A stretch of 64,000 bases of DNA. It comes from an uncultured bacterium. Lineage in GTDB: Bacteria > Bacillota > Clostridia > Lachnospirales > Lachnospiraceae. A program made the translations under genes and the position numbers. Under the pieces are notes generated by a model. That model ran no database searches. It was not told the origin of the DNA and saw only the letters and a list, made by a program, of their open reading frames with translations. Below are positions 35,989 through 57,698 of the stretch, piece after piece. Location: positions 8,360 to 72,359 of the forward strand of contig CANRVD010000002.1 in the NCBI GenBank assembly GCA_947643145.1, given 5' to 3'. How positions within the stretch are numbered: position 1 is the first letter of the stretch; each line of letters opens with the position of its first letter.

Positions 35989-36117
35989 TCAGATATGTAA
36001 GCTGAACACAACATGAGGAAAACATAAGGAAAACATAAGCTGCTGATTTTGCAGCGCCTGACAGCTTGCCGGCAGATATTATGCATGGTGTTTAGAATGG
36101 CTGTGAATTGTAATAAT
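35989..36117 (+). repeat. Repeat family D
   Basis: Homologous to the reverse complement of 51101-51224 (CATAAGGAAAACATA.GCTG.TG.TTTTGCAGC...GTTTAGAA.GG..GTGAAT). Confidence 0.7.
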
Positions 36118-54035: not shown

Positions 54036-54122
54036 AACAAGAAAGTACTCTTTTACCGCGGGTAAGTGGCGGTAAAGGAGTACTTTCTTGTTAGCGCACC
54101 AGCGAAGTCGGTGCGCTTTTTT
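54036..54122. terminator. Long hairpin terminator plus short REP hairpin
   Basis: AACAAGAAAGTACTC...GAGTACTTTCTTGTT followed by GCGCACCAGCGAAGTCGGTGCGC. Confidence 0.7.
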
Positions 54123-54741
54123 AGGCTTTATAATCGATTGCATTTGATGTCATAGTCTGTGTTGTGACCGGCAGATTCGGAATGGAATTTGTTGGTGTTG
54201 TTTTCTTTTTCTGCGCGGAATTGCTGGAAAGGCATAAGTTCCTTGCAAAACGGCTGATTTGTGTCGCGTATTTTGTTACCATACCGGTAAATTCACTTTT
54301 ATCCGACAATACTTTTTTCACTTTAGCAGCACTGCTTGATAAAAGGTCAGTTTTATCAAGCTTTAATTTGCCGGAAGATGTAACCTTGATTCCGATATCT
54401 TCCAGGGCGCTTTTATTTGCTTTGATATAATTTTTCAATTTCTTCTCTGCGCGGGTTAGCTGTGAAGAAGATGAAAGCTTGTCAGTACTGTCAAAAAGAT
54501 TATTATAGGATTCAACAAAAGCCTTTACATTATTATATATGTTAACTCCGTTATCTTTGCCGTAATCCATTGTTCTTAGATTACGTGCTACCTTTTTTAG
54601 CGCTTCAGAATCAGCACGAACCAAATCCTCTGTCTTTATGGCACCGCGGTTTATTGTTTTGCGGGCATCCCGGTTTGAGGAATAGTACTGGCGCAGCAGA
54701 TAATCATAGCTTGTAATAGTAGTATTTGTAATAGAAGCCAT
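54121..54741 (-). CDS. Short FliD_C-like hypothetical protein
   Basis: KAFVESYNNL and LEDIGIKVTSSGKLKLD; SigD-like GACGATAT upstream (54784-91). Confidence 0.6.
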   Translation of the reverse strand: MASITNTTITSYDYLLRQYYSSNRDARKTINRGAIKTEDLVRADSEALKKVARNLRTMDYGKDNGVNIYNNVKAFVESYNNLFDSTDKLSSSSQLTRAEKKLKNYIKANKSALEDIGIKVTSSGKLKLDKTDLLSSSAAKVKKVLSDKSEFTGMVTKYATQISRFARNLCLSSNSAQKKKTTPTNSIPNLPVTTQTMTSNAIDYKA

Positions 54742-54959: not shown

Positions 54960-55916
54960 TTGAAAAAGGTTTTAGTTGTTATTGACATGCAGAAAGACTT
55001 CGTGAGCGGATCTTTGGGAAGCGCAGAGGCAGTGAAGATTGTACCGGCAGTCCGTAAGAAAGTCGAAGATGCGTTAAAGGAAGGTACAAAAGTTATTTTT
55101 ACAAAGGATACCCATGAAAAAGAGTATCTACAGACGCAAGAGGGGAAAAAACTTCCGGTGGAGCACTGTATTCGTGGGACAGATGGCTGGCAGATTATTC
55201 CTGAATTGGAGGAGTATGCGGAAATTGTATTAGAAAAGCCGACCTTTGGCTCCATAGAGCTTCCTGATTATGTGAAAGATGTAGAATATATTGAAGTAAT
55301 AGGACTTTGTACTGATATTTGTGTAATATCCAATGTGTTGCTGCTCAAAGCGCATTTTCCAGAAAAAGATATCTGCGTAGATGGTTCCTGCTGTGCCGGA
55401 GTGACGATAGATTCCCATCATAATGCGCTGGAAGCGATGAAGATGTGTCAGATAGATGTAATAGAAGGCACGCTTCCAGAAAAAAGGGTAATGGTGCAGA
55501 CTTTTGGAAATTTTCAGGTATTTATTGACGATAAACCGGTAAATTTTTCAAGGAGTAAGTCAAAAGAACTGTTTGCTTTTCTGATTGACAGAAGGGGATC
55601 GGGAGTCAGTACGGCAGAGATTGCTTCGATTCTTTTTGAAGATAAGGAGTATAACCGTTCCGTTAAGAATCAGGTGCAGACAATTATCAGCCAGTTAATG
55701 GAAGGACTGCGGGCATATGGCGCGGAGGATATCATAGTACGTCAGTGGAACAGCATTGCGATAGATACACACAAGATAAAATGTGACTATTTTGACTACT
55801 TGGAGCATGTGGATAGTGCCAGGATGAAGTATTCTGGAGAATATATGATCAATTATAGCTGGGCAGAATATACCAATGGTTATTTAATCCAGCAGAAGAA
55901 TAGGGAGATAGAATGA
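54960..55916 (+). CDS. Nicotinamidase/isochorismatase domain fused to a SARP/OmpR-like winged-helix output domain
   Basis: IDMQKDF, KDTH, HCIRGTDGW, EKPTFGS, CTDICV; then VQTFGNFQVFIDDKPVNFSRSKSKELFAFLIDRRG...YSWAE; TTG start. Confidence 0.85.
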   Translation: MKKVLVVIDMQKDFVSGSLGSAEAVKIVPAVRKKVEDALKEGTKVIFTKDTHEKEYLQTQEGKKLPVEHCIRGTDGWQIIPELEEYAEIVLEKPTFGSIELPDYVKDVEYIEVIGLCTDICVISNVLLLKAHFPEKDICVDGSCCAGVTIDSHHNALEAMKMCQIDVIEGTLPEKRVMVQTFGNFQVFIDDKPVNFSRSKSKELFAFLIDRRGSGVSTAEIASILFEDKEYNRSVKNQVQTIISQLMEGLRAYGAEDIIVRQWNSIAIDTHKIKCDYFDYLEHVDSARMKYSGEYMINYSWAEYTNGYLIQQKNREIE

Positions 55917-56016
55917 TTTTACTGTTACTGTGAGTAGTAACCTTTGGCTGGTAAAATTATATTTTTTGGATAAAAGGGTGAATTATTTTAGAAAAAGGGA
56001 GAAAAACAGTTCGATA

Positions 56017-56050
56017 TGGTGTCCTTTTGGTGTCCCTTTAATGTTATACT
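56017..56050 (+). promoter_or_regulatory. Activator-dependent promoter with tandem direct repeats
   Basis: TGGTGTCC at 56017 and 56028 (11-bp period) in place of a -35, then TGnTATACT at 56042-50. Confidence 0.65.
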
Positions 56051-56054
56051 AATG

Positions 56055-56151
56055 TTGTTATCAAGTTACTTAATGTAACAGTAACAAGATATACCCCTCA
56101 AACCCCTCTCCTCTTCAGAGCGATTTATCGCTGTGAAGAGGAATTTTTTTT
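56055..56151 (+). ncRNA. Putative C-rich trans-acting sRNA
   Basis: 5' hairpin, ACCCCTC twice plus CTCCT, strong terminator CCTCTTCAGAGCGAT..ATCGCTGTGAAGAGG+T8; no ORF. Confidence 0.55.
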
Positions 56152-56221: not shown

Positions 56222-56249
56222 TTGACATTTTTCGTACAAATGCTACAAT
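56222..56249 (+). promoter_or_regulatory. SigA promoter of the rnf operon
   Basis: TTGACA-N16-TACAAT with extended TG. Confidence 0.7.
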
Positions 56250-56375: not shown

Positions 56376-57698
56376 ATGAGTGAAGGAACATTTCGCGGGG
56401 GAGTGCATCCCTACGAAGGAAAAGAACTATCAAGTGACTTACCAATTAAAGCGGTAACACCGAAAGGTGATATGGTATTTCCTATGTCACAGCACATTGG
56501 CGCACCAGCTACACCGATTGTAAATAAAGGTGATAAAGTACTGGTTGGACAAAAAATTGGTGAAGCCAGTGGTTTCATTTCAGCAAATATTTGCAGTTCT
56601 GTTTCCGGAACAGTTAAGGCGGTAGAACCTAGAATGCTTTTAAATGGTTCTATGGCAACATGTGTAGTGATTGAGAATGATGGAAACTACACAGGGATTG
56701 AGGGACTTGGGGAGGATCGTGATTATACAAAACTCACAGGTGACGAGATTCGGGAGATTGTAAAAGAAGCGGGAATCGTTGGTATGGGAGGTGCAGGTTT
56801 TCCAACAAATGTAAAACTTGCGCCAAAGGAGCCGGATAAAATTGACTTTATTTTAGTGAACGGTGCCGAGTGTGAGCCATATCTGACTTCTGATTACCGC
56901 CAGATGCTAGAATGCCCGGAGGAGATTGTAGGTGGCCTGAAGGTTATGTTAAAGTTGTTTGACAAGGCGAAGGGGCTGATTTGTATTGAGGATAATAAGC
57001 CGGAGGCAATTGCCAAGATGGAGACTGCTGTCGCAAATGAAAGCCGTATTGAGGTAAAGGTTTTAAAAACCAAATACCCTCAGGGTGGTGAGCGTACCTT
57101 GATTTCTGCAGCAACGGGCAGAAAAATATATTCTGCCAAGCTTCCGGCAGATGCTGGCTGTATTGTAGATAATATTTCTACTGTAATTGCAATTTATCGT
57201 GCAGTATGCAAGCGGACACCACTTATTACAAGGGTTATGACATTAACAGGAGATGCTTTCAAAAGACCTGTGAATGTAAATGTCCGACTGGGATGCAGCC
57301 ATGTGGAACTTGTAGAGGAAGGGGAGGGCTTTAAGCAGGAACCGGCAAAGATTATTTCAGGCGGTCCGATGATGGGATTTGCCATGTTTGATTTGAATGT
57401 GCCTGTTACAAAAACATCTTCCTCTATTTTAGCAATGACACAGGATGAAGTGGCAGAGAATGAACCAACACCATGTATTCGTTGCGGTCGCTGTGTATCA
57501 GCCTGTCCGGGTAATCTGGTACCTCAGAAAATGGCAGTTGCAGCAACAAATAACAATTACGACGAATTTGTGAATTTAAATGGTATGGAATGCTACGAAT
57601 GTGGCAGTTGTACTTATGCCTGTCCTGCAAAGCGCCCGCTGACCCAGACCTTTAAGCAGGCCCGTCAGTATGTCATGGCACAGAGAAGAAAGAAATAG
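56376..57698 (+). CDS. rnfC: Rnf complex subunit C
   Basis: QHIGAPA, GMGGAGFPT, NGAECEPYL, two 4Fe-4S motifs. Confidence 0.96.
   Translation: MSEGTFRGGVHPYEGKELSSDLPIKAVTPKGDMVFPMSQHIGAPATPIVNKGDKVLVGQKIGEASGFISANICSSVSGTVKAVEPRMLLNGSMATCVVIENDGNYTGIEGLGEDRDYTKLTGDEIREIVKEAGIVGMGGAGFPTNVKLAPKEPDKIDFILVNGAECEPYLTSDYRQMLECPEEIVGGLKVMLKLFDKAKGLICIEDNKPEAIAKMETAVANESRIEVKVLKTKYPQGGERTLISAATGRKIYSAKLPADAGCIVDNISTVIAIYRAVCKRTPLITRVMTLTGDAFKRPVNVNVRLGCSHVELVEEGEGFKQEPAKIISGGPMMGFAMFDLNVPVTKTSSSILAMTQDEVAENEPTPCIRCGRCVSACPGNLVPQKMAVAATNNNYDEFVNLNGMECYECGSCTYACPAKRPLTQTFKQARQYVMAQRRKK

Follow-up and report, generated by a model that had tools for sequence, protein, structure and literature searches.

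The window analysed here is a stretch of 64,000 nucleotides from a genome assembly (G000) of an uncultured member of the Lachnospiraceae. It carries, in this order, secE-nusG-rplK-rplA, an open reading frame (ORF) of 206 aa on the minus strand, a plus-strand gene coding for a fusion protein, a gap of 420 nt and rnfCDGE. The 206-aa ORF (54121-54741, minus strand) is a conserved upstream neighbour of pncA or of the fusion gene in many species of the genus, with identities of 41-54% in tblastn. The fusion gene and its parts are the following:

54960..55916, plus strand: fusion gene coding for a PncA-like nicotinamidase joined to a SARP-type winged helix-turn-helix (wHTH) output domain; 318 aa, TTG start (ORF list, Pfam, homologues)
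54960..55469, plus strand: PncA/isochorismatase domain, residues 1-170 (Pfam, alignment, profile search, fold match, dimer prediction)
55470..55490, plus strand: inter-domain linker, residues about 171-177 (low pLDDT; insertions of 0-26 aa in homologues)
55491..55913, plus strand: predicted SARP-type DNA-binding domain, residues about 178-318, an OmpR-like wHTH with the first helices of a BTAD-like extension (homologues, AF2 model, fold match, recognition helix)

An earlier note on this DNA had described the N-terminal part of the protein as retaining the catalytic and metal-binding residues of PncA/isochorismatase enzymes, and this was borne out. Residues 4-168 matched the Pfam family Isochorismatase (PF00857) with an E value of 2.4e-29 and 103.1 bits against a cut-off of 27, and the catalytic triad D9-K93-C121 and the metal ligands D50, H52 and H69 were invariant in the fusion homologues (33/33). 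No receiver domain (PF00072) was detected in the fusion, its N-terminal part being the isochorismatase domain. With the NCBIfam equivalog for nicotinamidase/pyrazinamidase, PRK11609, the fusion scored 34.5 bits, below the cut-off of 174; the assignment to PncA rests on neighbours among PDB structures and folds and on the adjacency to pncB in relatives. When solved structures were searched with a profile of the 33 full-length homologues, P. horikoshii PncA (1ilw) was reached at 2.4e-16, along with B. subtilis PncA and other nicotinamidases, and nicotinamidases were also the top Foldseek matches of the full-length AlphaFold model (pLDDT 86.6). The linker that follows residue 170 is variable, with 0-26 aa inserted among the 33 homologues.

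In five relatives (G001, G002, G018, G067 and G069) the standalone pncA orthologue lies directly beside a gene for a pncB-type NAPRTase. This arrangement, a classical Preiss-Handler pair, supports a role as nicotinamidase. In the fusion lineage, pncA is located away from pncB. A pncB-type gene of about 490 aa is present in 36 of the 48 genomes of the genus; in the G000 assembly, which is 84% complete, neither pncB (PF04095) nor the NiaR 3H domain was found, and nadA is present. A search of the fusion genomes for a second PncA-like gene yielded none, apart from two weak isochorismatase-like matches in G009. As the fusion is thus the only PncA-like gene found in its genomes, it has probably kept the job of the enzyme, that is, it would be the nicotinamidase of the cell. 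Four metagenomic proteins of about 450 aa (P0035-P0038), considered as longer, receiver-containing intermediates, were rejected as such; they consist of two tandem isochorismatase domains, about 50% identical to the enzyme domain of the query.

The C-terminal half was compared with regulators of known type. Over about 140 aa, residues 172-318 share 50-62% identity with the output domain of many PF00072 proteins of 265-280 aa, one of which is labelled 'two-component SAPR family response regulator' in its source. Pfam gave a weak match to Trans_reg_C (PF00486) at residues 199-260 (14.5 bits against a cut-off of 26.2, E 0.037) and no match to its BTAD domain at E <= 1. When the C-terminal domain was modelled on its own (AF2, 42 sequences), a pLDDT of 94.6 and a pTM of 0.89 were obtained, and the best fold matches of the model were EmbR (TMq 0.75) and, at a TMq of 0.69, AfsR from transcription initiation complexes (8hvr, 8k60), with ordinary winged helices of the OmpR/PhoB type (PhoB, ArlR) ranking lower at a TMq of about 0.5. 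The 147-aa model aligned over 166 columns with the SARP domains of EmbR and AfsR, and about 55 aa follow the wHTH. All fusions share the recognition helix RS(V/I/L)KNQVQT, given as RSVKNQVQTI for the protein described here; in the resident paralogues of the genus that combine a receiver with a SARP domain (REC-SARP), both the recognition helix and the wing differ from those of the fusion. The comparison of sequences and the modelled fold support the reading of the C-terminal half as the kind of SARP output domain found in clostridial REC-SARP ('SAPR') regulators, in agreement with the earlier proposal that an enzyme has been fused to a domain normally found behind a receiver.

It had also been considered that the fusion might be unique to this assembly, as a deletion or an assembly chimera. 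This did not hold: the homologues show a conserved fusion and not an assembly artefact. About 33 protein clusters (90% identity level) have members of 316-351 aa that span 97-100% of the query with identities of 56-94%, and the full fusion is encoded in 8 of the 48 species genomes of the genus (G000, G005, G009, G010, G012, G016, G066 and G070). Most other species of the genus have a standalone orthologue of 170-180 aa which, where the flanks were readable, occupies the same place behind the 206-aa ORF, with rnfC following it in some species. One of the fusion clusters is named only 'isochorismatase family protein [Lachnospiraceae bacterium]'; with public records saying no more than this, the regulatory half is unannotated. 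A tree of the isochorismatase domain, of low resolution, was compatible with a single origin of the fusion or otherwise.

Downstream of the fusion gene, the earlier note had reported direct repeats with an 11-bp period at the -35 position, an extended -10 and a unit of about 95 nt with its own terminator. All of these were located in the sequence:

56017..56027, plus strand: upstream direct repeat, TGGTGTCC followed by TTT, at about -40 to -30 (sequence, relatives, genome scans)
56028..56038, plus strand: downstream direct repeat, TGGTGTCC followed by CTT, at about -29 to -19 (sequence, relatives, genome scans)
56042..56050, plus strand: extended -10, TGT TATACT, with TG at 56042-43 and TATACT at 56045-50 (sequence, relatives)
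56057..56151, plus strand: putative small RNA (sRNA) of about 95 nt, with its start inferred from the -10 (BLASTN, fold, conservation)
56057..56085, plus strand: 5' hairpin of the sRNA; 19 distinct sequences in 25 species, always a hairpin in the predicted fold
56089..56113, plus strand: invariant 25-nt core ATATACCCCTCAAACCCCTCTCCTC; positions 4-8 and 12-19 predicted unpaired in 25/25 species
56109..56151, plus strand: intrinsic terminator, with a covarying stem at 56109-56142 and T8 at 56144-56151
56222..56249, plus strand: separate sigma-A promoter of rnfC, TTGACA-16-TGnTACAAT, a neighbour outside the module

The two copies of TGGTGTCC (56017-56024 and 56028-56035) recur with a period of 11 bp, 101 nt past the stop codon of the fusion, each repeat consisting of 8 conserved and 3 variable bp. 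No -35 hexamer was found at a spacing of 16-18 bp before the -10 of the sRNA. If the start is placed 7 nt past the -10, the repeats reach from -40 to -30 and from -29 to -19. The same geometry is known from the afs box of AfsR, which extends from -40 to -19 and consists of two 11-bp repeats, of which the first 8 bp are contacted and the last 3 are not, next to a poor -35; AfsR binds this box with two protomers side by side, and the dimer engages sigma region 4 as well (PMC10936776). By alignment of positions, the geometry of the repeats equals that of the afs box.

The 3.3-Mb G000 assembly contains a single exact copy of the repeat pair, as does each of five fusion relatives (96-99% complete), always at the sRNA promoter; in five non-fusion genomes one match with a single mismatch was seen, in G008, which is no more than with the reversed control. 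When the sRNA promoters of the genus were compared, TGKTGTCC-N3-TGKTGTCC stood in place of the -35 in all the fusion species (8/8), and the other 17 species that bear the RNA had neither the repeats (0/17) nor the fusion (0/17), nearly all of them having a -35 of the form TTGnnn. Of the 25 species with the RNA, exactly the 8 with the fusion have the repeats. Since the eight species are kin and the joint presence of fusion and repeats may go back to one evolutionary event, this 8/8 versus 0/17 is no statistical test. In G005 the fusion gene and the repeat-bearing sRNA are found on different contigs, so that their association does not depend on physical adjacency. Among 34 metagenome contigs with the sRNA core, most of which belong to two abundant human-gut species types, repeats were present in 2, exactly those of the fusion type. 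Altogether, the exact co-occurrence, the unique genomic site and the SARP-box geometry make the link between regulator and promoter well supported at the level of comparative genomics.

The -10 lies at a fixed distance in all 25 RNA-bearing species and is TGn-extended in all of them bar G005, which has AGC before TACAAT, with G007 being ambiguous; in the fusion species the extended form is kept in 7 of 8. As an extended -10 can work without a -35, the sRNA promoter could be partly independent of any factor. Elsewhere in the window, at about 36006-36035 on the minus strand (G000:C2:44365-44394), three tandem 8-mers with a period of 11 bp were noticed, TGTTTTCC TTA TGTTTTCC TCA TGTTGTGT; they resemble the repeats of the regulator with 2-3 mismatches, and no -10 is found at the right distance.

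The predicted fold of the non-coding unit at 56057-56151 (-31.2 kcal/mol, z -6.7) has a hairpin at the 5' end, then a C-rich stretch without pairing and finally a terminator that runs into T8; the unpaired core contains two CCCCUC motifs. A simple terminator scanner had passed over this terminator, the hairpin of which has a nested stem. By BLASTN, the unit was found once per genome in 25 of the 48 species of the genus, with the exact core in each of them (25/25), and compensatory double changes were seen in 7 of the 14 pairs of the terminator stem. In five fusion relatives, with proteins 67-75% identical, the stretch from stop codon to repeats was not conserved and that from repeats to T-run was nearly identical. 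Rfam 15 gave no match overlapping 56055-56151 at E <= 10, RsaE included, and a search of 399 other genera of the family, with one genome for each, did not find the core 25-mer at up to 3 mismatches. These comparisons support the sRNA as a real, conserved and structured unit that would form a genus-wide family. The general marks of a trans-acting, base-pairing sRNA, namely an own promoter, an own terminator and a conserved unpaired seed, are present, all as predictions. Between the stop codon of the fusion and the sRNA no terminator is evident, and for this reason part of the sRNA pool could derive from read-through of the fusion mRNA and processing. In eleven species (G008, G036, G031 and G004 among them) the standalone PncA is the closest to the enzyme domain of the fusion, with 65-71% identity. 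No sRNA copy was detected in these eleven species, in which the output domain and the sRNA may have been lost together.

In the window, rnfC starts at 56376, downstream of the sRNA, and the position given in the earlier note, at the head of the rnf operon, is true of this locus; however, it is not conserved with the fusion, as rnfC lies downstream of the sRNA in 8 of the 25 RNA species and in 3 of the 8 fusion species. An isochorismatase gene is upstream of the sRNA in 10 of the 25, and most species have other flanking genes. The link to rnf and redox genes that had been drawn from this neighbourhood is not sustained, either by these counts or by base pairing: the start region of rnfC is at the 34th percentile in duplex energy with the sRNA core, no better than the average gene. 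Scoring of duplexes between the core and ORF starts gave no excess over the reversed core, and contiguous complementarity of 10-13 nt was no more frequent than for the reversed core. In another pass, duplex energies at 2699 crude gene starts had the same mean, -12.2, for the core and for its reversed control. Across the genus, the 15-mer complement of the core was matched no more often than the control. Recurring 13-mers of the core complement were discarded as targets, being intragenic in unrelated genes, in other genomes too. The longest core-complementary site in the assembly is a perfect match of 16 nt, GGGGAGGGGTTTGAGG, outside the window (G000 contig C82:5691-5706) and 26 nt upstream of a gene for a dCache-HAMP-GGDEF diguanylate cyclase; another of the best sites, of 14 nt, lies at the ribosome-binding site of a baseplate-J-like prophage gene. 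No functional theme emerged among the best predicted core targets over all passes.

We propose that a bifunctional PncA-SARP protein activates the sRNA promoter through the repeats and that the sRNA acts in trans, and we consider this explanation as a whole to be likely. The domains, the conservation of the fusion, the RNA family, the joint occurrence of repeats and fusion, and the uniqueness and geometry of the site come from the comparisons described above; we infer from them that the protein binds DNA, that it activates and does not repress, and how the sRNA acts. The output domain would derive from a clostridial REC-SARP response regulator, with a nicotinamidase in the place of the receiver. 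The enzyme domains would form a two-fold dimer, and flexible linkers would let the two DNA-binding domains sit head-to-tail on the repeats at -40 to -19, a layout comparable to that of PhoB or AfsR with PncA as a substitute for the receiver. Once bound, the SARP domains would stand in for the missing -35 and bring sigma-A RNA polymerase to the extended -10, in the manner of AfsR at its afs box. The promoter with the repeat site, the only one of its kind, would then drive the single-copy sRNA of about 95 nt, which most likely pairs in trans with G-rich ribosome-binding regions. The ancestral order was probably pncA, sRNA with its own -35 promoter, and rnfC; the full order is present in G020 and G029, and pncA followed by the sRNA in G065. 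In one lineage the output domain would have been joined to pncA and the -35 swapped for the repeats.

In line with the dimer supposed here, prediction of the homodimer gave an ipSAE of 0.88 versus 0.18 for the best control, with runs agreeing in at least 96% of contacts and a partner pLDDT of at least 84. Of the proteins solved as pairs, 20 of 30 attained this ipSAE, compared with 1 of 23 solved as single chains; since dimers of the isochorismatase family have been solved, the homodimer may pass through likeness to them, and the prediction shows likeness rather than proof. The predicted interface falls wholly within the enzyme domain (residues 59-65, 94-99, 119-137 and 148-164). This agrees with an activator that works constitutively, in which the PncA domain is a dimerisation scaffold as well as an enzyme and control is exerted by the amount of fusion protein alone, without sensing of a ligand. 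The place of the fusion gene at the ancestral pncA locus fits the same reading, as does the near absence of other PncA-like genes from the fusion genomes (the two weak G009 matches apart), which would account for the invariant residues. Nevertheless, the segments 94-99 and 119-125 of the interface are adjacent to the active site, where occupancy by substrate or acyl-enzyme could alter the dimer, and a constitutive activator in place of an ordinary -35 promoter brings no obvious gain; we regard this reading as possible, if on the doubtful side. That nicotinamide, nicotinate or the catalytic cycle modulates activation has, in our estimation, slightly less than an even chance. The invariant active site is explained equally well by retained enzyme function. 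A true trigger enzyme, with nicotinamide occupancy or turnover setting the activator and a burst of NAD+ breakdown being passed on to an anti-Shine-Dalgarno sRNA that reprograms translation, seems to us rather unlikely. Sirtuins, ADP-ribosyltransferases and phage defences of the NADase type release nicotinamide when they cleave NAD+.

The proposal that the PncA-SARP protein activates a trans-acting RNA has also to be weighed against readings that change the partner, the sign or the nature of the RNA. Another factor, such as a resident REC-SARP response regulator, might bind the repeats, with the co-occurrence with the fusion reflecting shared ancestry: paralogues of about 270 aa are found in nearly every genome of the genus, and the kinship of the fusion species leaves room for a single event. 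Nonetheless, these paralogues occur also in species devoid of repeats, their recognition helix and wing are not the invariant ones of the fusion, and repeats and fusion stay together even when unlinked, as in G005, which makes this possibility highly improbable. We also give very little credence to repression of the sRNA by the fusion through occupation of -40 to -19. The extended -10 of 7 of the 8 fusion species belongs to promoters that can fire without a -35, and the repeat site overlaps the position expected for sigma region 4; against this, its geometry agrees base for base with that of activating SARP and pho-box sites, non-fusion species have a -35 in addition to the extended -10, suggesting that the -35 contact matters, and characterised SARPs are, to our knowledge, activators. 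Finally, the 95-nt unit might be the 3' UTR or terminator of the upstream gene, or a cis-acting leader of the downstream gene, here rnfC. The missing terminator after the fusion stop codon and the recurrence of rnfC downstream (8/25) and of an isochorismatase gene upstream (10/25) would suit it, but we think it very unlikely: a -10 of its own precedes each copy at a fixed distance (extended bar G005, ambiguous in G007), conservation begins at the promoter and not at the stop codon, the flanking genes vary in most species, rnfC has a strong promoter of its own past the terminator, and a terminator needs no invariant, unpaired core of 25 nt.

If the PncA-SARP protein acts as proposed, it would offer a test system with a single target for the action of a SARP-type domain outside the Actinobacteria and for the replacement of a receiver domain by a metabolic enzyme. 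It would likewise be a case of promoter rewiring within one genus, the same sRNA being driven by an ordinary -35 or by activator repeats. The sRNA represents a sharply conserved and so far undescribed family in Lachnospiraceae that abound in the human gut, bacteria for which we know of almost no riboregulators. Should the trigger-enzyme reading be true, there would be signalling from a cofactor breakdown product to an RNA regulator, which has no described counterpart.

The earlier note knew of no described system like this, and our literature searches for the combination, an enzyme as receiver substitute on a SARP domain of a Firmicute with a single sRNA as its one recognisable target, found none with this architecture. 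With the SARPs of Actinobacteria (AfsR, ActII-ORF4, DnrI; EmbR) the fusion shares the predicted DNA-binding fold and the two 11-bp repeats (8 + 3) at -40 to -19 that replace a good -35. It differs from them in its host, a Firmicute, in the short BTAD-like extension of about 55 aa, in an identity of 14-17%, in having an enzyme as its sensor or partner domain, placed N-terminally, and in its predicted target, which is one sRNA and not a biosynthetic cluster. The clostridial REC-SARP proteins ('SAPR family', COG3947) are close in the output domain, with the identities given above; in contrast to them, the fusion has a nicotinamidase for the receiver, with no phospho-acceptor and no partner kinase implied. 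The fusion resembles PncA nicotinamidases (P. horikoshii 1IM5/1ILW, B. subtilis 5ZN8, S. pneumoniae 3O90) in its predicted fold, in the D-K-C triad and the D-x-H...H metal site, and in that its orthologues are linked to pncB in the genome; the C-terminal DNA-binding domain sets it apart from them.

Enzyme or enzyme-like domains of cofactor pathways fused to a helix-turn-helix domain are found in NadR and NrtR and in the 'trigger enzymes' BirA and PutA, and the fusion is of this general make. However, those proteins repress genes of their pathways and use HTH, wHTH or RHH domains from other families, whereas the fusion is presumably an activator of the SARP type, and the one site recognisable for it drives an sRNA. 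Among small RNAs, the CiaR-dependent csRNAs of streptococci have promoters with a direct repeat in place of the -35. The sRNA described here resembles these csRNAs and RoxS/RsaE of the Bacillales in its length of about 90-110 nt and in the unpaired C-rich motifs between a 5' hairpin and the terminator. ResD, a regulator of the OmpR family, controls RoxS, which is tied to the NAD+/NADH balance (PMC4409812, PMC5419742). Unlike RoxS/RsaE and the csRNAs, the new family has a different core sequence and was found in this genus only, and its regulator is not a two-component one. The parts are thus of known kinds, a PncA enzyme, an activator of the SARP/OmpR type with an afs-box-like site and a C-rich Gram-positive sRNA.
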